Positions 14,799 through 27,232 of a stretch of DNA of 30,298 nt are shown in pieces. The DNA comes from Desulfobacterales bacterium (GTDB lineage Bacteria; Desulfobacterota; Desulfobacteria; Desulfobacterales; JAHEIW01): positions 2,507,788 to 2,538,085 of the forward strand of contig CP070746.1 in the NCBI GenBank assembly GCA_020348305.1, in the 5' to 3' direction. How positions within the stretch are numbered: the first letter of the stretch is position 1; every line of letters starts with the position of its first letter. The translations under genes were made by a program, and so were the position numbers. The notes beneath the pieces were generated by a model. That model saw only the letters and a program-made list of their open reading frames with translations. It did no database searches and was not told the DNA's origin.

Positions 14799-16130
14799 AT
14801 GCTGAAGCTGAAATCAAAAAAGGATGTCCTAAAAGTTGTTAAGGACCAGGATGTAAGTTTTATTCAAATCTGGTTCACGGATATTTTGGGAATTTTAAAA
14901 TCATTTGCCATCACGCCTTCTGAACTGGAGGGTGCTCTCACCGAAGGCATGGGATTTGACGGCTCTTCGATTGAAGGGTTTGCCCGCATCGAAGAAAGTG
15001 ACATGATCGCCATGCCGGATCCTACGACATTTCAGTTTCTACCCTGGCGCCCCAAGGATCGCCCGGTGGCCCGCATGTTCTGCGATATTCTGACACCGGA
15101 TGGCTCCCACTATGCCGGTGATCCACGCTATGTATTTAAGCGGGCGCTTCAAAAGGCGGCTGATAAAGGCTACAAATTTTTCATCGGACCTGAACTGGAA
15201 TTTTTCTATTTTGAAAGCAGTGAAAATCCAAAATTTATTGATATGGGAGGCTATTTTGATTCACGACCGCTTGATCTGGCCAGTGACTTGCGCAGAGACA
15301 CGATATTTATGCTCCAGCGCATGGGGATCCAGGTTGAATACAGCCACCATGAGGTGGCACCCAGCCAGCATGAAATCGATTTGCGATTTGATGAAGGTCT
15401 TAAAATGGCGGATAAGACCATGACCTATCGCGTGGTTGTCAAAGAGGTTGCCCGCAAACAAGGCGTCTATGCCACCTTTATGCCCAAGCCCATCTTCGGA
15501 GAAAACGGCAGTGGCATGCATGTTCACCAATCGCTTTTTCGCGGTGATATGAACGCCTTTTATGATCCATCAGATAAATACCATTTATCCGAAATGGCCA
15601 AATCCTATATTGCCGGCATCATGCGACACGCGCGGGAAATTGTCGGGGTTACCAATCAATGGGTGAACTCTTACAAGCGTCTGGTGCCAGGCTATGAAGC
15701 GCCCGTATATATCTCCTGGGCGCGGCGCAACCGCTCGACAATGATACGGGTACCCATGTACAAGCCCGGCAAGGAAGTTGCCACTCGCATTGAGTTTCGT
15801 TCACCGGATCCGGCCTGCAATCCTTATCTGGCTTTTGCAGTTATGCTGATGGCCGGTTTAAAAGGAGTTGAACAGAACTACGCGCTGCCGGATCCGATCG
15901 AAGAGGATATTTACGAGATGGATGAAGCGGCAAGGGAAAAGGCTGGCATTGTTTCGTTGCCGGGAAGTCTTTTTGAAGCCATTCAGGAGCTGGAACAAAG
16001 CGAGGTGGTTCGAGAAACCCTTGGGGACCACATCTTCCAGCAATTCATTGCCAACAAGAAAATCGAATGGAACCGCTTCCGAACGCACGTCAGCAGGTAC
16101 GAGATCGAAAACTATCTTCCCAAGCTTTAA
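14799..16130 (+). CDS. glnA: Glutamine synthetase type I-alpha (443 aa)
   Basis: Canonical GS motifs: [51 protein letters not shown]...EFRSPDPACNPYLAF. It has no adenylylation-loop insertion. Confidence 0.9.
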   Translation: MLKLKSKKDVLKVVKDQDVSFIQIWFTDILGILKSFAITPSELEGALTEGMGFDGSSIEGFARIEESDMIAMPDPTTFQFLPWRPKDRPVARMFCDILTPDGSHYAGDPRYVFKRALQKAADKGYKFFIGPELEFFYFESSENPKFIDMGGYFDSRPLDLASDLRRDTIFMLQRMGIQVEYSHHEVAPSQHEIDLRFDEGLKMADKTMTYRVVVKEVARKQGVYATFMPKPIFGENGSGMHVHQSLFRGDMNAFYDPSDKYHLSEMAKSYIAGIMRHAREIVGVTNQWVNSYKRLVPGYEAPVYISWARRNRSTMIRVPMYKPGKEVATRIEFRSPDPACNPYLAFAVMLMAGLKGVEQNYALPDPIEEDIYEMDEAAREKAGIVSLPGSLFEAIQELEQSEVVRETLGDHIFQQFIANKKIEWNRFRTHVSRYEIENYLPKL

Positions 16131-16343
16131 AAAGGAGACGATATCACTGGCCTTGGAATTATTCGCCCAGAATAAATTCTCGCCGGGCACTACCGGCGAC
16201 GGCCTTTTCTTCGATTGATATAAAGTGATATTTTCATGGGCGTCCATTTCGTATCTCTCGTGTTTTTCTTATTAAAATCAATCTATCGGATAATTTCGTT
16301 GCTTTTTTTAGGAAAACTTTTTAGGAGTGACATTTCATATTGA

Positions 16344-16712
<369 letters not shown>

Positions 16713-16769
16713 AATATAAAACATTTAGATACTTTTTCAAGAAAAGAAAATAATAGGGAGGAAAAACGT

Positions 16770-18182
16770 ATGACACCCAAAGAAGTCTTAGATATGGCTA
16801 AGGAAAACGGAGCCAAGGTGGTTGACTTGCGCTTTATGGATTTTCCGGGCGTCTGGCAGCACTTTAGTGTGCCGATCAACGAATTGGATGAATCGAGTTT
16901 TGAAGATGGGTATGGGTTTGACGGTTCCAGTATTCGTGGCTGGCAGCCGATTCACGCCAGCGATATGCTGGTAGTCCCCGATGCGGATACCGCCAAAATG
17001 GACCCATTTTATGAAGCGCCAACGCTGGTGTTAATCGGCAACATCGTTGATCCGGTAACCCGGGAGCCTTACACCCGGGACCCGAGAAATATTGCTCAAA
17101 AAGCCGAAGCCTATCTAAAAAGCACGGGTATTGGTGATATCGCATATTTCGGCCCTGAGCCCGAATTTTTCATCTTTGACGACATTCGCTTTGAGTCCAC
17201 CCGGTTTGGCGCCTTTTATGAAATTGACTCCATTGAAGGGGTCTGGAACTCCGGTCGTGAGGAAATGCCCAACCTGGGCTATAAACCGCGACACAAAGAA
17301 GGATATTTCCCGGTTCCACCCATGGACAAGTTTCAGGATCTGAGAACGGAGATGGTTTTGACCTTGGAAAATCTGGGGATCGCAACCGAAGCCCAGCATC
17401 ATGAAGTCGCCACCGCCGGCCAGGCAGAAATCGATATGCGTTTTATGCCGCTGCTCCAGATGGCCGATCAACTCATGTGGTTCAAATATGTGCTTAAAAA
17501 TGTCGCCTATCGCAATAACCATACAGTGACCTTCATGCCCAAACCGATTTTCGAAGACAACGGAACCGGCATGCACACCCATATCAGCATTTGGAAAGAA
17601 GACCAGCCGCTGTTTGCCGGCGATAAATATGCCGGTCTTTCCCAGGAGGCATTGTATGCCATCGGCGGCATTTTAACCCACTGCAAGGCGCTATGCGCCT
17701 TTACCAACCCGACCACCAATTCCTATAAACGATTGGTGCCGGGTTTTGAAGCACCGGTGAACTTGGCCTACTCCAGCCGCAACCGCAGTGCGGCGATTCG
17801 AATCCCAATGTATTCCCCGTCACCGAAAACAAAACGCATTGAGTTCCGCACCCCGGATCCTTCCTGCAACGGCTATTTAGCATTTTCAGCCATGCTGATG
17901 GCGGTCATCGATGGTATCCGGAACAAGATCGATCCCGGCGATCCCCTGGATAAAAACATTTACAACCTGCCGCCCGAAGAACTGGCTGAAATTCCATCGG
18001 CGCCCGGTTCCTTGGAAGAGGCGCTGGCCTCTTTAAAAGATGACCAGGAATTCCTTTTAAAAGGCGATGTCTTTACCTCGGATGCCATCGATATGTGGAT
18101 CGAATACAAAATCGAAAATGAGGTCAACGACGTCAAATTGCGACCCCACCCGCATGAGTTCTTTCTGTATTTTGATATTTAA
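16770..18182 (+). CDS. glnA: Glutamine synthetase type I-beta (470 aa) with adenylylation-site motif
   Basis: GS motifs [65 protein letters not shown], plus a NIYNLPPEE adenylylation-type Tyr segment. The RBS is GGGAGG. Confidence 0.9.
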
Positions 18183-18241: not shown

Positions 18242-19307
18242 GGGACGTTGTTGACTGAATTGACTTAGTTTCTCGCCCGTTTTATGATCTTTGATATGGC
18301 CGAGGTGGAAACGCCCAGTCGCCGAGCAACTTCGGCTAAAGCAACCCCTTGGTTCTTTACCAACCCAATCGCAATCCGAGCTCGAATCCCTGATACCTCT
18401 TTGCGCCGGCTGCCGGATCTTAATTCTTCAATTGATACTTTTCCATTTTTGCACAATTTGGCTATCAATTCATCAATTTTTTGATGATGCTCCTTCACCG
18501 GCAGTTGATATTTGATTTGGCTTTCAGCTTCTTTTATGACCCGCTTGACAAATTCACCACTGCCTAAAATCCGCTCATCACTCAACTCGCGATCTGCTGA
18601 GCGGCGCAACGCTTTCACCGCCGACCAACCACCCAAGGACCGTATTAATCCCCCACCAACAAGGTCCGGGCGACGCCCTTCATTTATTCCCTTTTGAACA
18701 TATTTGCGATAAGCTTTTTTAGCCTCGGCCTGCTTGGGCCCAAACCATTTCAATACATAGTCTCGATTCTGCCAGTCATTTTTAACGCGACCCATTAAAA
18801 CGCTGTGACCACACCAGCGGTAGCGGTCTAATTGTGCTAAAGTTTTAACTAATTTAGCCCGCAAAGGATTTAAATGGATATATCGTACCAATTCTTTAAA
18901 ATAGGCATCTTCTTCACAGATAATCGACTTATAGCGGTTTTGAAATAAATGACCCCAGCGTCGATGACGCCGATTGTAAAAAATCGCATAGCCCGTCAGC
19001 AACCGTCGCATAAATCCCGAAAGCCCATACTCAGAGCTGCGTAAAAGAATGTGCGCATGATTGCTCATCAGTGCCCAGGCATATATGGCGGTTTTGGTAC
19101 CTACGGCAAGCTTTGCCAAGCGCCTTACAAAATCTTTTCGATCCGTCACATCATTGACAATTTTGCCTCTTTCTATTCCTCGTACCATCACATGATGCAA
19201 TGTTCCAGGGGCATCCAATCTGGCTCGCCGCGGCATCTTCCCCCTCCTCCTTTAAAATTCTAACCATTTGCATAACATAAATTAGTCAACTCAGTCAACA
19301 ACGTCCC
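18242..19307 (-). mobile_element. Compact IS-like/REPtron-like element: Y1 transposase gene bracketed by about 26-bp imperfect inverted repeats
   Basis: Left repeat 18242-18268 is GGGACGTTGTTGACTGAATTGACTTAG. The reverse complement of 19282-19307 is GGGACGTTGTTGACTGAGTTGACTAA (24/26 identical). Each repeat contains a tandem TTGACT-N3-TTGACT. The left repeat overlaps the transposase stop codon. Confidence 0.55.
18265..19236 (-). CDS. Y1 HUH transposase (IS200-like/RAYT-like) with C-terminal HTH (DnaA-C-like) domain
   Basis: 323-aa ORF with a HUH motif (ALMSNHAHILL) and a catalytic Tyr context (GHLFQNRYKS), typical of the IS200/IS605 TnpA and REP-associated tyrosine transposase superfamily. 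The C-terminal ...LVKNQGVALAEVARRLGVSTSAISKIIKRA is an HTH. Confidence 0.75.
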   Translation of the reverse strand: MPRRARLDAPGTLHHVMVRGIERGKIVNDVTDRKDFVRRLAKLAVGTKTAIYAWALMSNHAHILLRSSEYGLSGFMRRLLTGYAIFYNRRHRRWGHLFQNRYKSIICEEDAYFKELVRYIHLNPLRAKLVKTLAQLDRYRWCGHSVLMGRVKNDWQNRDYVLKWFGPKQAEAKKAYRKYVQKGINEGRRPDLVGGGLIRSLGGWSAVKALRRSADRELSDERILGSGEFVKRVIKEAESQIKYQLPVKEHHQKIDELIAKLCKNGKVSIEELRSGSRRKEVSGIRARIAIGLVKNQGVALAEVARRLGVSTSAISKIIKRARN

Positions 19308-19546: not shown

Positions 19547-20155
19547 TTATTTCCATGACTCGTCTTTATACAGCCCATTTCTGCTTATTTCTAGCGCTGA
19601 TTTTGCTAAATCCATATCTTTCTTAAGTTCAGAGTTCGGATTTAAATTAAATGCCTTTCTGTAAGCTTCGTAAGATTTAGCATAGTCCCCAATTTTGTAA
19701 TAGCAGTATGCCACATTTTCCAATATTAAAGAATCATCTCTTTCTAAATTTAAACTTTTTTCAAAATACGATATAGCCTCACGGTATTCATTTCTTATTA
19801 CGTTAATACGTCCCAAATAGTCTATCGCAGCTTTGTTATTAGGATTAGTTTCGAGAACCTTTCTAAAATATTCTTGCGATTCAATATACCGTTGTGCGTT
19901 GAATGAGGCCTTGGCAAGACCATACATAATCTTTATGTTATTGAAACCATATTGCATTAACTTTTTGTATTCATCTATTGCCTCTCTATTTTTACCTTCA
20001 GATCTGTATAACTCGCCCAACAAAAAACGAGCGTGATAATCCTCAGGTTTATGATTTATCCTCTTTATACAGAACTCTTTAACAGAATGTATTGAAAAAT
20101 TAAATCTAGGGACGAGATATATCAACAACCGGATATAAAAAATATATTTTTTCAT
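19547..20155 (-). CDS. Secreted or membrane-anchored TPR-repeat protein; candidate immunity protein for the upstream RHS toxin
   Basis: 202-aa ORF, very AT-rich. The N-terminus is hydrophobic (MKKYIFYIRLLIYLVP), followed by at least four TPR-like repeats (...AIDEYKKLMQYGFNN..., ...YFRKVLETNPNNKAAIDYLG..., ...AISYFEKSLNLERDD..., ...YEAYRKAFNLNPNS...). It starts 14 bp after the RHS gene stop on the same strand. Confidence 0.7.
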   Translation of the reverse strand: MKKYIFYIRLLIYLVPRFNFSIHSVKEFCIKRINHKPEDYHARFLLGELYRSEGKNREAIDEYKKLMQYGFNNIKIMYGLAKASFNAQRYIESQEYFRKVLETNPNNKAAIDYLGRINVIRNEYREAISYFEKSLNLERDDSLILENVAYCYYKIGDYAKSYEAYRKAFNLNPNSELKKDMDLAKSALEISRNGLYKDESWK

Positions 20156-20169
20156 ATTCAGTAAAACCT

Positions 20170-23100
20170 CTAGGGATTATGAAAAGCTGAAAATATCTTC
20201 GCTGCAAACTTCTTAGCTTGCCACTTAAACTTTTTCCATTTCGACCACTTGTCATAATCATTTGGCTCTTTCATAAAATCTGGATCATTAGGATCATTTG
20301 AGGGATAACTCCAACCAGGCATTCCTGGTGCATCCCATAAGGGACCATATTCATCTCCCATTCCTCTAGATTCATATGCTGGGCAGGCACTACTGTCCTC
20401 ACCACGAGCCATCAAGATATCGAATAGAATATCTTCAGCCTCATCCTCACTGGGGATATAAGGAATATCAGGTAAATTTACGTCAGGAAGATCAGCACCA
20501 GTTGCGTACCCTAAAGCTCCTATAAGTAGCGGTGCACCATATAAAAATGCTCGAAGAGCAGCCTGTCCTCCAAAAAGCCCTCTTGGATCAACCGCATTAA
20601 TTGGATCATTTAAACAATACCCATAAAGATCCGTATCACCTCCAGCAAAAAAAATAGGATCTTTGGCGGTCCATCGCCCTGTGTCGGGATCATAGTCGCG
20701 GAAACCAAACCTAACTAGGCCTGTATCCCGGTCGTCAAGCCCTCCTGCAAATCCAAAAGGCACCTCAATTGTCGGATTGGTATCATTTATTATATTGCCA
20801 AATGAATCATACTCAATTAATTCTACCACATTGCCGGAAGCATCTGCAACAACCCGCAACGAGCCCACCTGGTCATAAGTAAGAAAATAGGTTGTCCCAC
20901 CGCTTTTCATAGCCACCGGCATGCGATCATCAGCATACTCGAAGCGCATCAGTAGATTATTAGAACCATCATAGACGGCCAGCAGACGCGTTAGACCCTC
21001 CCACAGGTATTTCTCGACAACAACTCCATCTACCTTCTTGGCGATTCGTCTTCCCAGTGGATCATGGAGATATTCGATAACGCGACCATCGGACAAATCA
21101 ACGCTTAGTAGCTCTCCACGAGAAGAATATTTATAGTTGGTCACGTCATCTCCATCTTTCTTAGTAGTTAAAAAGCCGTCTAGATTATAAGAATAGCTCA
21201 TAGATCCAGCCGATAAGAGATGATCCCCAGCCGAATAACTAAAGCTCCTTACAGAAAATCCTCTCAGCGTGTTTGTTTCAGAGATTCGTGTTCCACTGAG
21301 ATCATAGCCATACGCTTCAACTAAATTACCGTCTTTGGTTACAGTCAAGAGTCTTCCCATGGAGTCATATGTATAAGCATAATTTGTGGTAACACTACCA
21401 ACCGTCTCGGTTTTGTTTATGATTCTTCCGTTATCATCGCGGGTTAATATCCACGTGGTTACATTTTGGCTACCAACCGTAAAGTTCTGCCCTTCCACCT
21501 CACCGTAACCATTGAATGCGCGAGAAAGACTCAACGCACCGCCGGTAACCGCTTCAGGCAATCCATTCTGAGTATTACGAGAAATTGAATAGGAACCTGC
21601 AGCGGTTAATAGCCCGTCATTATCATAATCATAACTAACGGTGCCTCCCGCATAGGTAAAACTGGAAACATCAAAGTCGTTATTGTAGGTGTAATTTAAT
21701 GATTGATTCAACGTGCCGCTCAACATCTCCAGTGTGACCAGCTTTCCATCATAGCCGTAAGTAATTGATTCGGTGTCTTTTGTGATTGATTCAACTTTTG
21801 TTCCACACAGATAGGTAAAATCAATGTTGCCTTCCGGTGTCTGAATTTGAGAAAGTCTAGTCTTGTCCCAGATGTTGAATATCTGTTTGCCGGAAGGGAA
21901 GTTTGTCTGGATCAAACGCCTGTCCTTATCATACACATAACTGTAACTCCCGCTCAATGGCGTCGTATAAGCGCGATATAGATTGACGCTGTTAAATCCA
22001 AAACCGTGGTTGATATCCACCGGATTAGTCAACACCGTCATATTGCCGTTTTTGTCATAAGTAAATCCCACATAGCCATCGTCCGGGCGGCTTATCCCGG
22101 TTATCCGCCCAACCGGATCATAGCTGTAAGTTGTGGTGTAATTCTCTGGATTGGTGATGGATTCAGGAAATCCCTGTGCATTATAAGCAAATGTGGTTTG
22201 CCTGGCATTGGTGCTGATGGAGGTCAACCTTCCCCTTGAATCGTAGCCATATGCTGTGGAATGAAGGCCAGGCACGCTAACACTTTCGACTAGCAAAGTA
22301 GCAGGATCGTAAAGCGATGTTATTGACCTACCCTCAGGTGAAGTGACTAATTTCCGCGCCTGAAGGGTATTATGTTCAAGTGTCGTGGTTTTGCCATTGA
22401 TCGTTACCGTCTCTGTGATCATGTCCGGTGCTTCATCAGCGTCCGTATCTTGATAAGCCTTATCCCTCAGCGTCACCCATTCTAGTCCTGAAGGGGCACT
22501 TTCTCTCATTTCTTTGACGTATTTATACTTATACTCATAATCCACATCGTATTTGAATTCAAGCTCCATTCCACAGGGCAAGGACTTATTTACGGTTAAT
22601 CCATCTGCTGATTGAGTAAATAATGTTTGAGCTCCCGTGGGATCTGTTATGGTTGAGCTGTAGGCACCGGTGGAATCTGTGCGGTCCAGATAGGAATTAA
22701 GGTTGCCCTCCGCTGTTAGAACCTGGATTAATATATCTCCATTCTCATTTACAATTCTGTTGTAATTCCAATGACCTCCTTCCTCGTCATATACGTCAAT
22801 CAATCCACTGTATTCGAAGCGGTTGCCTTCGGGTTCCACCTTTGCAGTTATCAGACCACCCTCGGCATACTCAAAAGTGTAGTAACTGTCATCGGGATAC
22901 GTGATCCAGGTAAGGTGATTGTTTGCATCAATTGTCAAACTGGTATAAATTCCATCCGGAGAAATGATTGAGGTCGGCGAACCGCTACTATCCCTGGAAA
23001 TGATGGTTTGGTTGCCGAATCGGTCGGTAATCGAAGCCAATCTTCCATCCGAGTCATATCCAAAATCATAAAGGGTTACCCCGGTATCAAGGTCAATGGT

Positions 23101-26100
23101 TGTCTTGTGACGTCCGGAACTTGACGCGATGTAGCCCAGGCCGTTCTCCTCAGCAAATGTTAGATCCCCCTCGCTCGTTATGTTGGCGAAAGCTGAAGGA
23201 GGGGCAACCTTCCGGATACGTCCATTATTATCAGCTATGTAAATGTTGTTTAGGGCATCCACTGCTACGTCCATAATCGTATTGAATAAGGCTTCGGTGG
23301 CGGGTCCACCGTCGCCGCCGTAAGTAAATTCTGAGTCGGATTTGCCGGCCACCGTGCTGATTATTCCTTTCGTATTAACTTTCCTCACTACACGATTCTT
23401 AAAACCTGCTATATATAGATCTCCTGCCGAATCAACGGCTAAACCACGAGGGTTATAAATACTCGCTTCAGTGGCAGGTCCGCCATCTCCACTGTAGCCC
23501 GGAGTGCCGTTTCCAGCTACGGTCGTGATGATACCACTCTTATCCACTTTACGAACGCGGTGGTTGTTGACGTCGGCAATATATAGATTGCCCTCCAAGT
23601 CGACAGCCATGCCTAATGGATATTTAAATTGGGCGTCAGTGGCAAACCCGCCATCTCCGCTATAACCATTATTTCCATTGCCAGCCACAGTGGTTATGAT
23701 GCCGCCTGTGTCCACTTTCCGAATGCACTGATTCCCTGAATCGGAAATATACAGATTTCCCGACGCATCCACAGCAACGTCATACGGATGGTTAAGTGAT
23801 GCTTCGGTAGCAGATCCTCCATCTCCACTATAGGCCGGAGTGGCAGTTCCAGCCACGGTGGTGATAATGCCACTCTTATCCACCTTACGAACGCGGTTGT
23901 TATAGTAATCCGCTATGTAAATATTACCAGAGGCGTCTGCGGTAACCCCGGTTGGATAGTATAGTGACGCTTCATTTGCAGGACCACCATCTCCACTATA
24001 GCCCGGAGTGCTGGTTCCAGCTACGGTAGTGATGATGCCGCCACTATCCACCTTGCGAATACAGTGATTACCGAAATCTGCTATATAAAGGTTGCCTTCA
24101 GCATCCAAATAAACACTGTAGGGTTGTGTAATCTGAGCTTCAGTAGCAGATCCGCCATCACCGCTATAGCCATTCGTTCCGTTTCCGGCCATGGTGTCAA
24201 CGATGGCAGTGTTATTTCTTGTTTGCGTCCCGTCTCCCTTGTGCAAGGTAGATAAGTCCATGAGGTTCACTTGATGATGGGCGGACAATGTCCAGCCCTC
24301 GGCGATAACACCACCTCCTTGAGCGGAAATAGGAGGTATTGTTATATCAACATCGTTTCGCTTCCATGAAGTTATCTCCATCCTCGCTATAACTGCGGTT
24401 TCATCTCTACCTGCCTGGGCAAATGCTCTGATCAATTCCCGAGGCTCTAAATAGACTATATCGTACACGAAGCCTATTTCCACATGTGCTGTTGTAGAAC
24501 CAATAACACGCCTTCCTAAATGGTCCTTTCCATCCCATCCAAATTCAGCCGACTGGTTTGGAAGGGGGTCTATTATTTGTTCGTAAACACGGCCTGCCAC
24601 CTCGACTCTTGCGATGATCCGTTTCAGACTTTCGGGAACTGTTTCTCCGCTTGCAGGAACCGTGATTCTATAAAGGTAGCCTGGCACTCTGTTAATTGCA
24701 TAATGAAGGGTAAGATCTGTGCCGGGAATGGGGATGTCCTCGTGGAAAACTCTGCTGCGTGCTTCTACAAAAGAGCCAAGTCGTTTTTGGCAATCATCTT
24801 CTTCATTTTTTTGCTCATCAATTGCAACTTCGCCATTTGGATTAGGAGGAATAGAATCTGTTGGCGGGCCAAAAGGCCAGTTGATATCCCAAGGTGTGAA
24901 ATGGGTGATGGCCACTCGCCAGAAGGAAAAACCGGGTGCGTATCTTCCGGGATCATAAAGTCCGGTCACCTCATCGTTAAAAAAACCATTGCCATTGAGA
25001 TCATCCGGCTGATCATCGCCATCTGCGTCCAGAGCGTCTACGCTACCGTCAGCGTCCGTGTCGAGAAGTTTTACCACAACACCATTGTCAGCAGGCACCC
25101 AAACACCTCTATCTCGATCGTAATAACCAACAGGAGCCGCCATGCCCACATCAAAACCCAAGAAATTATCTACCCAGATAATAACAGGCTTTTCAAACCT
25201 TATTCGTTGTGCCCCATCTACGCTGAGTTCCACGCAATAGGTGTATGCGGAGTTAGGCGGCAACTTGGCCGGCATGGACTGCTCGGTGGCGAATTCGGTG
25301 GCACGGGCCGTAATAGTAGTAAGTTCTTGGATGTCATTTCCATTTTCATCCACTAAATAGGCCCGGTTGTCCCCTGTAAATACTATAGAGGCCGAGCGAC
25401 TGCCGAACTCATCAGTCACTGGGGTGCTCTGGTGAGTGACCACCGTGTCCGGATTGCCGTCAAATGTCAGTATGGTGGCAGCCGGATCTTCGGCGATCAT
25501 CTGAATTGTCTCTGGAATCGCAATGTCGTTCCAGGTGACGTAGACCTTCCGCTGGCCCGGGACCAAGCCATCTTTTTGATACACAACGGTCATCGTTGCC
25601 CCACCTTCAACCGGAATGGAAAACCGACCTTCTGCATCGGTGGTGACTGTGCCGTATTCCGGATGACTATGTATGGTTATGGCAACATCTGCTATGGGAG
25701 TTTCTGCTAAATCCTGAACCAAACCGGTGATAACCGAAAACCGTTTTGGATCATATTCTTCAACTGTTGCATCCGGCGGTACAAGATCTTCATACTGTTG
25801 CCCGAAAGATCCCTCAGGTTGGAGCTCGGGATTGCCGGCCACATGAACCGTAACCCTGTCACCGATTGTGCCATAAGGACCACTTGCAGTGATGCTATAG
25901 ACAGTGGTTTGAGTGGGCGATACAGCATACGTACCATTTGCTTGTACGATACCGATGCCGGGCTCGATGAAGCAAAAATCAGCATTGGTGGAATTCCAGG
26001 CAAGGTTAGCTGTCTCTCCAACTGAGATAGTCTTAGGATTCGCAGCGATGCTGACGGTTATGGGCGCCTCGCCGAAACCGCTATTTTCGTCCACCTCGAC

Positions 26101-26949
26101 ACTCGATCCGATCTGGACGTTTTTCCCGATAAACGCGCCCTCGGCAACGCTCCCCTGCTTGATCAAAATGGTGCCGTTGGGTGCATAGATGTTTGCCTTT
26201 AGACTGTTGTTGCAGCCAATTGTTGCCGCTTTAGGGGTGGCTCCCAAGTTGCCCCTGGTGCCGTTGATGCCGTTGACATAGATGCGGATGTCCTTGGCAC
26301 TGATACCTGATTTATCAGCCGGACCGATGACCGCGTTTAGTCCCGGCTCCAGCCGGTTGTTAATAATCAGGTCGGTGGGTGCTTGAAAAAACACCTTTGC
26401 ATTGCGATAGCCCAGATCAAGGTTTTCAAAATGATAGGTACCGCCGGTCAAAATGAGCGTGGCATTTGCTCTCACCAGAATCTCACCGTAAGCACCAGGC
26501 TCCAGCACAAGGGTTTCACCCCGGGGGAGGTCATGATTTTCAGTCCCGGGAGCCGGTGCAGGGAAATCCGGCAAGGATATATCCAGGGGCATTTGTAAGG
26601 GGGTATATTCGTTGCCCCTGATAGTGCCGAGGTTCATCAGCTCATTGTAATGGACATCGTCTACTGAAGCATTTATTTTGATTTTGACAGTGTCTGCATA
26701 GATCGACGTACCATCCGGCATGTATACCTTTTTGCCGATGATTACCTCTGACTGGGGGCCAGGCCATAGACCAAGGCTTGCATTTTTGACACCGATCTTG
26801 CCACTTTTAACCGTAGCACCTTGACGAATCCAGATACTATCTGTGGCAAATACTGAAAATGAAGAGAGGTCGTTGATCGCATGGGAGAATTCTGGAAAGG
26901 AAGGAAAAATTACAAGCACAGCAAGCAGGCAGAAAATCTTTCTTAGCAT
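20170..26949 (-). CDS. Teneurin-like YD-repeat/RHS polymorphic toxin (about 2259 aa from the probable start; the long track ORF begins 30 codons further upstream at 27039)
   Basis: The probable start is the ATG at 26949, preceded by GGAGG 5 nt upstream, giving a signal peptide MLRKIFCLLAVLVIFPSFPEFSHA. Domains in order: a CarbopepD_reg/TTR-like domain (LVQDLAETPIADVAITIHSHPEYGTVTTDAEGRFSIPVEGG); an Asp-rich Ca-binding-like stretch (DTDADGSVDALDADGDDQPDDLNGNG); at least 6 NHL repeats (GYSGDGGxATEA...GNLYIAD..N.RVRKVD...GIITTVAG); many YD/RHS repeats; an RHS core ending in ...NAVDPRGLFGG (DPxGL autoproteolysis motif); then a 131-aa C-terminal domain with no recognisable motif. Confidence 0.9.
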   Translation of the reverse strand: MLRKIFCLLAVLVIFPSFPEFSHAINDLSSFSVFATDSIWIRQGATVKSGKIGVKNASLGLWPGPQSEVIIGKKVYMPDGTSIYADTVKIKINASVDDVHYNELMNLGTIRGNEYTPLQMPLDISLPDFPAPAPGTENHDLPRGETLVLEPGAYGEILVRANATLILTGGTYHFENLDLGYRNAKVFFQAPTDLIINNRLEPGLNAVIGPADKSGISAKDIRIYVNGINGTRGNLGATPKAATIGCNNSLKANIYAPNGTILIKQGSVAEGAFIGKNVQIGSSVEVDENSGFGEAPITVSIAANPKTISVGETANLAWNSTNADFCFIEPGIGIVQANGTYAVSPTQTTVYSITASGPYGTIGDRVTVHVAGNPELQPEGSFGQQYEDLVPPDATVEEYDPKRFSVITGLVQDLAETPIADVAITIHSHPEYGTVTTDAEGRFSIPVEGGATMTVVYQKDGLVPGQRKVYVTWNDIAIPETIQMIAEDPAATILTFDGNPDTVVTHQSTPVTDEFGSRSASIVFTGDNRAYLVDENGNDIQELTTITARATEFATEQSMPAKLPPNSAYTYCVELSVDGAQRIRFEKPVIIWVDNFLGFDVGMAAPVGYYDRDRGVWVPADNGVVVKLLDTDADGSVDALDADGDDQPDDLNGNGFFNDEVTGLYDPGRYAPGFSFWRVAITHFTPWDINWPFGPPTDSIPPNPNGEVAIDEQKNEEDDCQKRLGSFVEARSRVFHEDIPIPGTDLTLHYAINRVPGYLYRITVPASGETVPESLKRIIARVEVAGRVYEQIIDPLPNQSAEFGWDGKDHLGRRVIGSTTAHVEIGFVYDIVYLEPRELIRAFAQAGRDETAVIARMEITSWKRNDVDITIPPISAQGGGVIAEGWTLSAHHQVNLMDLSTLHKGDGTQTRNNTAIVDTMAGNGTNGYSGDGGSATEAQITQPYSVYLDAEGNLYIADFGNHCIRKVDSGGIITTVAGTSTPGYSGDGGPANEASLYYPTGVTADASGNIYIADYYNNRVRKVDKSGIITTVAGTATPAYSGDGGSATEASLNHPYDVAVDASGNLYISDSGNQCIRKVDTGGIITTVAGNGNNGYSGDGGFATDAQFKYPLGMAVDLEGNLYIADVNNHRVRKVDKSGIITTVAGNGTPGYSGDGGPATEASIYNPRGLAVDSAGDLYIAGFKNRVVRKVNTKGIISTVAGKSDSEFTYGGDGGPATEALFNTIMDVAVDALNNIYIADNNGRIRKVAPPSAFANITSEGDLTFAEENGLGYIASSSGRHKTTIDLDTGVTLYDFGYDSDGRLASITDRFGNQTIISRDSSGSPTSIISPDGIYTSLTIDANNHLTWITYPDDSYYTFEYAEGGLITAKVEPEGNRFEYSGLIDVYDEEGGHWNYNRIVNENGDILIQVLTAEGNLNSYLDRTDSTGAYSSTITDPTGAQTLFTQSADGLTVNKSLPCGMELEFKYDVDYEYKYKYVKEMRESAPSGLEWVTLRDKAYQDTDADEAPDMITETVTINGKTTTLEHNTLQARKLVTSPEGRSITSLYDPATLLVESVSVPGLHSTAYGYDSRGRLTSISTNARQTTFAYNAQGFPESITNPENYTTTYSYDPVGRITGISRPDDGYVGFTYDKNGNMTVLTNPVDINHGFGFNSVNLYRAYTTPLSGSYSYVYDKDRRLIQTNFPSGKQIFNIWDKTRLSQIQTPEGNIDFTYLCGTKVESITKDTESITYGYDGKLVTLEMLSGTLNQSLNYTYNNDFDVSSFTYAGGTVSYDYDNDGLLTAAGSYSISRNTQNGLPEAVTGGALSLSRAFNGYGEVEGQNFTVGSQNVTTWILTRDDNGRIINKTETVGSVTTNYAYTYDSMGRLLTVTKDGNLVEAYGYDLSGTRISETNTLRGFSVRSFSYSAGDHLLSAGSMSYSYNLDGFLTTKKDGDDVTNYKYSSRGELLSVDLSDGRVIEYLHDPLGRRIAKKVDGVVVEKYLWEGLTRLLAVYDGSNNLLMRFEYADDRMPVAMKSGGTTYFLTYDQVGSLRVVADASGNVVELIEYDSFGNIINDTNPTIEVPFGFAGGLDDRDTGLVRFGFRDYDPDTGRWTAKDPIFFAGGDTDLYGYCLNDPINAVDPRGLFGGQAALRAFLYGAPLLIGALGYATGADLPDVNLPDIPYIPSEDEAEDILFDILMARGEDSSACPAYESRGMGDEYGPLWDAPGMPGWSYPSNDPNDPDFMKEPNDYDKWSKWKKFKWQAKKFAAKIFSAFHNP

Positions 26950-27232
26950 GATGAACCTCCAGCAACTTTTAATTAACTTTGAACTAATGCGGTATATGAT
27001 GTCAAACAGCCTAAAGAAGAAACAGGGATAAGTTGACATAATGCCAATTGATTTGGGTAGGTTTGGACTGAAAAAATAAAGATCTTTTGGAGTAATTTAA
27101 GAAAGACCTGTCATGACTGTTTGCGATCACAACACCCCCTCCGCGAGACCTTGAAGGGTATTGACAGCATGAACTCCGTAGTTAGCTTTGTTTTAGTTAA
27201 TGGAGCGTTGGATGAACCCTTCCAGCGTCCAT

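Follow-up and report, generated by a model that had tools for sequence, protein, structure and literature searches.

The C-terminal cargo of a teneurin-like RHS protein, encoded on the minus strand of a 30,298-nucleotide stretch of Desulfobacterales DNA (GenBank assembly GCA_020348305.1, contig CP070746.1; referred to here as the window), belonged to a rare family that was defined by its tail, had no database annotation, and was new within the recently described teneurin-like protein (TLP) system. The conserved tail, the cognate partner gene, the existence of orphan cassettes, and the tracking of tail type by partner type indicated that the cargo was part of a polymorphic toxin/immunity-type cassette. 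Our preferred reading, to which we assign a probability of about one-half, is that the cargo of this RHS/TLP toxin cassette is a non-enzymatic effector that most likely acts on membranes and that the tetratricopeptide repeat (TPR) protein encoded downstream neutralizes it.

The feature at positions 20170 to 20565 of the window consisted of the last 131 residues and the stop codon of the RHS protein. A coding feature on the plus strand at the same positions was rejected because stop codons were found throughout. The longest open reading frame (ORF), located at positions 20170 to 27039 on the minus strand, encoded 2,289 amino acids, and its C terminus read ...NDPINAVDPRGLFGG-QAALRAFLYGAPLLIGALGYATGADLPDV...KWSKWKKFKWQAKKFAAKIFSAFHNP, followed by the stop. 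Codons 20173 to 20565 corresponded to exactly the 131 residues that an earlier, sequence-only reading had singled out, with DPRGLFGG just before them and a TAG stop codon at positions 20170 to 20172. The true start of the carrier is probably M31, which lies 30 codons inside the longest ORF (positions 26950 to 27039 are upstream) and opens a Sec-type signal peptide (MLRKIFCLLAVLVIFPSFPEFSHA); with this start, the teneurin-like RHS carrier gene would span positions 20170 to 26949 on the minus strand.

In one chain, the carrier matched the Pfam domains TTR_TEN1-4, FN-plug_TEN1-4, TEN_NHL, and TEN_YD-shell, and the presence of FN-plug, NHL, and YD-shell together placed it in the bacterial teneurin-like superfold. 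Its top matches in the PDB were 9pt5 and 9ifo, entries for the Bacillus inaquosorum TLP (BiTLP), whose structure has been reported (Raoelijaona et al., Nat Commun 2026, PMC13018210). The stretch of approximately 370 residues that separates the signal peptide from the TTR domain, including residues 55 to 330, had no Pfam match, and residues 325 to 400 appeared Ig-like on visual impression only.

Release of the cargo from this carrier was predicted from its RHS-associated core, which was located with its aspartyl autoprotease motif at positions 20575 to 20811 (minus strand). Specifically, the NCBIfam RHS-associated core model TIGR03696 matched carrier residues 2077 to 2155 with an E value of 2e-20. 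In BiTLP, residues R2103, D2116, and D2140 constitute the autoprotease, and the map density ends after L2144 of the DPSGL sequence (PMC13018210). Carrier residues R2114, D2127, D2151, and L2155 aligned with BiTLP R2103, D2116, D2140, and L2144, respectively, and the cargo directly followed a core that ended in PxxxxDPxGL and in which the catalytic Arg and the two Asp residues were intact. Because the autoprotease motif was intact, the cargo should be cut off after L2155 and kept inside the YD shell, and the alignment to the BiTLP cut residues indicated that the released fragment should be F2156 to P2289. This complete C-terminal (CT) fragment (positions 20173 to 20574, minus strand) would have 134 residues and a net charge of -9. 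Thus, the count of 131 residues after FGG was exact, but the predicted cleavage falls between DPRGL and FGG, and the released cargo would be FGG plus the 131 residues. The predicted cargo mass of about 15 kDa agreed with the typical size reported for TLP cargos (PMC13018210).

BiTLP is also cleaved at a second site, within the FN-plug, and a disulfide between C719 and C2216 joins the plug to the cargo (PMC13018210). In the window carrier, the FN-plug residue C750 (NEEDDCQKRLGS; positions 24790 to 24792, minus strand) aligned with BiTLP C719, beside the second autoproteolytic site. The region around it (DDCQKRLGS) resembled the second autoproteolytic site of BiTLP. The sole Cys in the cargo, C2219 (CT position 64; positions 20383 to 20385, minus strand), was kept in 13 of the 16 family members, and it was located 64 residues past the cut, as opposed to 72 in BiTLP. 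Because C750 aligned with C719 and the cargo Cys was conserved at a similar distance from the cut, the plug-to-cargo tether is possibly conserved. By analogy with BiTLP, a disulfide between C2219 and C750 may hold the cargo and the FN-plug fragment together.

The family to which the cargo belonged was small. An exhaustive HMMER search of 1.84 billion representative proteins identified 15 tail clusters at an E value of 1e-3 or lower, and word-indexed searches and contig scans added a few relatives, which brought the family to about 25 metagenomic sequences among several billion proteins. When viral contigs were scanned with this profile, no relative was identified. All of the relatives that reached far enough upstream continued from the DPxGL of an RHS core. 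The shared part was the last ~60 residues, with the pattern GPLWxAPGMPGW-x2-P-x2-DPxDPDF-xKxP-x4-KWSKWKKxKW-x2-KK. In the window, this family-defining tail module (YGPLWDAPGMPGWSYPSNDPNDPDFMKEPNDYDKWSKWKKFKWQAKKFAAKIFSAFHNP) was located at positions 20173 to 20349 (minus strand), with a Lys/Trp helix at positions 20179 to 20241. In the alignment of 16 members (A1), the invariant tail columns were P, A, P, G, D, P, W, and K; conserved His, Ser, or Glu residues were absent. The tails were of two types, which ended in ...FAAKIL..FHNP and ...GALxGAGGVG, respectively. The same tail was found on the TLP carrier and on ordinary DUF6531-type RHS carriers, and one of the carriers was encoded in a Desulfonema metagenome-assembled genome. 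Comparison of relative P0002 with the relative at locus L005 yielded ratios of nonsynonymous to synonymous substitution (dN/dS) of 0.13 (tail) and 0.24 (front part), and the tails of the window cargo and relative P0006 yielded a dN/dS of 0.22. This purifying selection excluded a functionless linker.

The sequence-only reading had treated the 131 residues as one domain, and this view was not upheld. The N-terminal part of the window cargo contained a portable module, GAPLLIGALGYATGxDxPD...PDIPYIPSEDEAEDILxDIL, with an acidic helix (positions 20410 to 20538, minus strand), which recurred in P0004 and P0005 with an unrelated tail in each case. Furthermore, the FHNP tail occurred with at least five different N-terminal halves. 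Since N-modules and tails were shuffled independently, the cargo consists of two exchangeable modules. P0004 (201 residues, from a 950-nt JGI contig) had the window N-module fused to an acidic tail with eight Cys residues (...KCDDEGDDEDRCKKIRDFCIDICSD...NCLNQCMEEYGCL), which may be another small disulfide-rich cargo. P0005 (L002:4408-5004) was the frameshifted cargo of a 1,282-residue RHS protein, and its tail ended in ...LIRAGNP. Downstream of it was the beginning of a divergent TPR-like gene, which had 35% identity over 40 residues to the window partner. The P0005 tail was considered as a distant member of the family and was rejected, as hhalign gave a probability of 4% against the A1 profile.

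The gene downstream of the carrier (positions 19547 to 20155, minus strand) encoded a protein of 202 residues with Pfam TPR matches, and we presume that it is the immunity protein. The sequence-only reading had not mentioned this gene. It began 14 nt past the carrier stop codon and had a Shine-Dalgarno sequence (GAGG) ahead of it. The interval between the two genes contained no promoter-like site, and the cargo and the TPR gene are predicted to be co-transcribed. The GC content was 31.9% in the TPR gene and 39.7% in the tail (0.32 to 0.40 across the cassette parts) versus 47.2% (0.47) in the window, and the drop started inside the cargo tail. Low GC is typical of exchanged cassettes, and the observed drop was consistent with a cargo-plus-partner unit gained by recombination. 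The TPR gene had a dN/dS of 0.18 to 0.25, and TPR homologues with 57 to 68% identity were found after every FHNP-type tail for which downstream DNA was available. Besides the window, there were four such loci (L001, L004/5, L006/7/13-15, and L016-18), of which the one at L006/7 was an orphan.

The GAGGVG-type tails were accompanied by a different partner, a protein of 140 to 156 residues with an invariant GHEIDHH sequence that contained an HExxH motif. This association was found at L003, L008, L009/10, and L011/12 and for the main gene of L007, and the HExxH genes were located at L003:8226-8690, L008:338-760, L010:6244-6690, L012:693-1142, and L007:4450-4920 (minus strand for L007). The HExxH gene was downstream of the RHS gene and on the same strand in all cases except L007, where it was convergent with the RHS gene and overlapped its end. 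The family had an invariant WQPW...FPY...LGHEIDHH sequence, a polar N terminus, and a hydrophobic/basic C terminus, and no relative was found in Pfam, NCBIfam, or the PDB. The HExxH protein could be a metallopeptidase-type immunity protein or a processing factor.

Both cargo types occurred in one RHS locus (L007:214-6844; the same locus as L013-L015). Here, a complete RHS gene with a GAGGVG-like tail and the convergent HExxH gene were followed by an orphan RHS-core fragment with an FHNP cargo that was frameshifted and a TPR gene that was intact. At L010, a 52-residue tail remnant and its HExxH gene adjoined a Y1 transposase gene. Y1 transposase genes similar to one near the window cassette flanked the cassettes at L010 (6893-7831) and L008 (961-1464), and IS110-type genes were present at L001 and L013, which suggests that the cassettes sit in spots rich in mobile elements. 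The small, co-oriented downstream gene that co-occurred with the tail, the orphan cassettes, the different carriers, and the atypical composition were all as expected for an RHS cargo.

We looked for known toxin domains in the cargo and found none, in agreement with the sequence-only reading, which had reported no recognizable toxin signature. The 131 residues had no match in Pfam or NCBIfam at an E value of 1 or lower, and ten family members that were scanned singly against Pfam had no match at an E value of 5 or lower. For the enzymatic domains of polymorphic toxins (HNH/GHH, deaminase, RNase, ADP-ribosyltransferase, peptidase, and nuclease), there was neither a Pfam or NCBIfam profile match nor a conserved catalytic set. 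When the 131 residues were searched with phmmer against all PDB sequences, including the 2,237-residue BiTLP chain, only two chance matches were returned. Single-sequence and profile searches of the cargo against PDB sequences yielded chance matches to beta-crystallin and kallikrein, as well as designed coiled coils that matched the Lys/Trp helix through its composition. A Foldseek search of the AlphaFold2 (AF2) cargo model against the PDB returned 0 matches. Thus, no confident match to a characterized toxin domain emerged from Pfam, NCBIfam, the PDB, or Foldseek. Sorting and anchor models in NCBIfam (PEP-CTERM, GlyGly-CTERM, LPXTG, etc.) did not match the cargo either. An interpretation as a sorting signal or stop-transfer anchor at the C terminus was rejected because no such model matched and because the fragment, judging by the autoprotease motif, is located inside the shell; furthermore, the hydrophobic segment was located about 85 residues before the basic tail.

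The composition of the cargo was biased, with 14 Pro, 14 Asp, and 12 Gly among the 134 residues. The cargo started with a Gly/Ala-rich, moderately hydrophobic helix (QAALRAFLYGAPLLIGALGYATG; positions 20497 to 20565, minus strand), so the hydrophobic stretch that had been noted there was present, but it was borderline: its maximum in a 19-residue Kyte-Doolittle window (KD19) was 1.34. Among the relatives, the KD19 maximum ranged from 0.54 to 2.29. The charge was unevenly distributed, as the last 30 residues had a net charge of +6 and the remainder of the window cargo had a net charge of -15. This layout was found family-wide, with an acidic front and a charge of +4 to +7 in the last 30 residues. 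The tail had also been described as Lys/Trp-rich and amphipathic. The Lys/Trp helix and its positive charge were borne out, but the amphipathicity was unremarkable, with a hydrophobic moment of 0.33 for a 25-mer and a maximum of 0.45 for an 18-mer. In structure prediction, AF2 with an alignment of ten sequences gave a mean confidence score (pLDDT) of 62, a block pLDDT of 71 to 91 over CT residues 81 to 130, and a helix at CT residues 112 to 132 with a block pLDDT of 81 to 91. Thus, the tail helix was predicted fairly confidently, but the hydrophobic N-terminal helix had a low pLDDT of 47 to 57. The prediction from the single sequence (mean pLDDT, 46) was uninformative.

The closest characterized system is BiTLP. 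The C-terminal domain of BiTLP (BiTLP-CTD) is hydrophobic, causes deformation of model membranes in simulations, and permeabilizes Escherichia coli to propidium iodide only when it acts from the periplasm; more generally, the C-terminal domains of TLPs are toxic and are neutralized by downstream genes, and immunity genes are located downstream of almost all TLPs, with one pair validated experimentally (PMC13018210). The window protein resembles BiTLP in its carrier superfold, R/D/D autoprotease, DPxGL site, and FN-plug Cys, in its cargo of ~15 kDa that is hydrophobic near the start and has its Cys at a similar place, and in the small gene immediately downstream. It differs in that a phmmer search of the PDB revealed no similarity in sequence between the two cargos, in that the window cargo ends in a conserved Pro/Trp/Lys tail that is also found on ordinary RHS carriers, and in that the partner is a TPR protein. 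Motifs of the tail, the junction, and the TPR protein were not found in the supplementary sequences that accompany the 2026 TLP paper, although one alignment was covered in part and this absence is not absolute. The immunity protein of the Desulfoluna TLP described in the same paper resembled the window partner only through generic TPR similarity.

The best model for how the cargo might work is Tse5-CT, a pore former that is encapsulated in the shell of a Pseudomonas aeruginosa RHS effector and released by autoproteolysis (PMC10684867). The two have in common a small non-enzymatic fragment, RHS autoproteolysis, a shell, and, for the window cargo by analogy, the membrane as a target. However, Tse5 is a type VI secretion system effector and the window carrier is Sec-exported; Tse5-CT had no sequence match to the cargo, and the Tse5 shell was matched only via the RHS core. 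In addition, the Tsi5 immunity protein is a membrane protein, whereas the TPR partner looks soluble. Tox-WTIP, the only pore-forming toxin domain in the catalogue of Zhang et al. (2012; PMC3482391), is likewise an RHS-associated, membrane-targeting, non-enzymatic C-terminal domain, but it is defined by a pair of membrane-spanning helices together with RxxR and Wx[ST]IP motifs; these motifs were absent from the cargo, and there was no Pfam match. Two looser parallels are functional and imply no homology. CdiA-CT toxins and colicins are bipartite, with an entry domain and a toxin domain, and their N- and C-terminal modules shuffle independently, as do those of the cargo. The cargo, with its cationic Trp/Lys helix after a neutralizing acidic segment, is also comparable to cationic Trp/Lys-rich membrane-active peptides such as cecropins and leaderless bacteriocins. 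The cargo falls outside the BiTLP-CTD, Tse5-CT, and Tox-WTIP families and outside the enzymatic toxin families; it represents a new cargo family, served by two alternative kinds of partner, in a known kind of competition system.

Our preferred reading translates into the following course of events. The carrier would be exported by the Sec pathway, and the cargo would be cut off after L2155 and held in the YD shell. Once delivered to a neighboring cell, the cargo would most likely target the anionic cytoplasmic membrane: its hydrophobic N-terminal helix and its cationic Trp/Lys helix would attach to the bilayer or enter it and compromise the integrity or the potential of the membrane. Neutralization would come from the TPR partner, which would bind the tail and possibly clamp the invariant ...FHNP C terminus, and the lone Cys may link the cargo with the FN-plug fragment in the way seen in BiTLP. 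The conserved part of the cargo is too small and too rich in Pro and Gly for an enzyme and has no conserved residues of a catalytic type except one Asp and one or two Lys, and these properties suggested that the cargo is non-enzymatic. We infer its toxicity and its action on membranes; the BiTLP-CTD and Tse5-CT precedents, the hydrophobic N-terminal helix, the acidic-to-basic charge layout, and the cationic Trp/Lys C-terminal helix make a membrane target plausible, and with it the small pore-forming or membrane-depolarizing effector that the sequence-only reading had suggested.

Several observations weighed against a membrane-active cargo with a neutralizing TPR partner. The KD19 maximum of the hydrophobic segment was below the 1.6 that is the usual cutoff for a transmembrane segment, and the segment contained an Arg, a Pro, and several Gly residues. 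In six tail-bearing members (five of the GAGGVG type and P0013), the KD19 maximum was below 1.1. The hydrophobic moment of the tail helix was reached by 11% of shuffled sequences and was not significant, and the AF2 cargo model from ten sequences was only partly confident. The TPR partner had no signal peptide or transmembrane segment, and the alignment of the HExxH partners also showed no signal peptide. The immunity proteins of known membrane-targeting toxins are membrane or periplasmic proteins; those of Tse5 and CdiA-CT of EC93, for example, are membrane-embedded. Finally, because the family is tiny, the partner associations were based on about five loci each.

Because the transmembrane helix was weak, the amphipathicity unremarkable, and the partner soluble-looking, the main rival is a non-enzymatic inhibitor that acts in the cytoplasm, with the N-module as an entry or translocation element and the 60-residue tail as a warhead that would bind an essential intracellular target and be blocked or degraded in that compartment by the TPR or HExxH partner. 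The independent shuffling of N-modules and tails matches the entry/toxin layout of CdiA-CT, some family members lacked a transmembrane-like helix, and both partners looked cytoplasmic: the longest uncharged run in the first 40 residues of the TPR protein was 8 or fewer and its N terminus was highly conserved, unlike a signal peptide, and the N terminus of the HExxH partner was polar. Nevertheless, we consider an intracellular target unlikely, though worth serious attention. No such target can be suggested, and we know of no small non-enzymatic toxin in RHS systems that acts in the cytoplasm. The cationic Trp/Lys helix and the acidic front, which resembles a pro-region, are closer to membrane-active peptides, and the nearest precedent, BiTLP-CTD, is toxic only from the periplasm. 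A bolder reading, which we regard as doubtful, is that the RHS/TLP shells of sediment Desulfobacterales deliver a bacteriocin-like, Trp/Lys-rich peptide of about 60 residues in place of an enzyme and that two unrelated families of cytoplasmic partners neutralize it, with the TPR protein clamping its FHNP C terminus and the HExxH metallopeptidase-like protein destroying the sister tail. If this were true, a polymorphic toxin system would deliver a peptide toxin and rely on immunity of a protease type.

The remaining alternatives were less probable. The cargo could instead be a tether, a retention or surface anchor, or a signaling or kin-recognition peptide that socially organized Desulfobacterales cells exchange, with the TPR protein as its chaperone or receptor. 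TPR proteins are typically peptide-binding chaperones or receptors, the partner had a weak, sub-threshold LcrH/SycD-like score in NCBIfam, the conserved Cys may serve only to attach the fragment to the FN-plug, as occurs in BiTLP, and no catalytic residues were conserved. TLPs are also enriched in bacteria with social behavior (PMC13018210). A non-toxin role nevertheless seemed improbable to us in view of the low-GC CT-plus-partner units, the orphan cassettes that adjoined transposase genes, the two partner families that tracked the tail type, and the occurrence of the same tail on TLP and DUF6531-type carriers; in addition, no known C-terminal sorting signal was found. That the cargo is an enzyme with a new fold, such as a minimal peptidase or a lipid-modifying domain that uses the conserved Cys, Asp, or Lys, is very unlikely. 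The Cys was nearly conserved, the Asp and the Lys residues were invariant, and the prediction of a defined, non-regular conformation for the tail was fairly confident, but the conserved part comprised ~60 residues, one-third of which were Pro or Gly, with a single helix. Moreover, the Cys was missing in 3 of the 16 members, no His, Ser, or Glu was conserved, and no enzyme family or fold matched. The least probable alternative, with hardly any chance of being correct, is a disordered leftover linker or a decaying remnant without activity. The uninformative single-sequence prediction, the biased composition, and the frameshifted or truncated relatives at L002, L006/7, and L010 were in its favor. 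This idea was disfavored by the intact ORF, the conserved tail with motif columns that were invariant across otherwise divergent carriers, the purifying selection (dN/dS of 0.13 to 0.24), the cognate partner gene that was conserved and translationally coupled, and the pLDDT of the tail when the alignment was used.

Bacterial TLPs were shown to be shell-encapsulated polymorphic toxins only in 2026, and most of their cargos have no assigned function. If the cargo described here is membrane-active or peptide-like, it would widen the small set of non-enzymatic RHS cargos, which includes Tse5-CT and BiTLP-CTD, and it would offer a compact toxin/immunity pair, native to anaerobic bacteria of sediments, with which to study how a cargo exits its shell and enters a target cell. 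The finding challenges no current concept.

The remaining genes in the window included those for MTHFR, an MvhD/HdrA-like protein, two glutamine synthetases, and a sigma-54 activator, which indicate a chromosomal region of an anaerobe. The glutamine synthetase genes (443 and 470 residues) were arranged in tandem at positions 14799 to 18182 on the plus strand, and a 112-residue ORF was located between them (positions 16374 to 16712). About 300 nt downstream of the TPR gene, at positions 18265 to 19236 on the minus strand, the window encoded a 323-residue Y1 protein (IS200/REP-associated tyrosine transposase-like) with a C-terminal helix-turn-helix.

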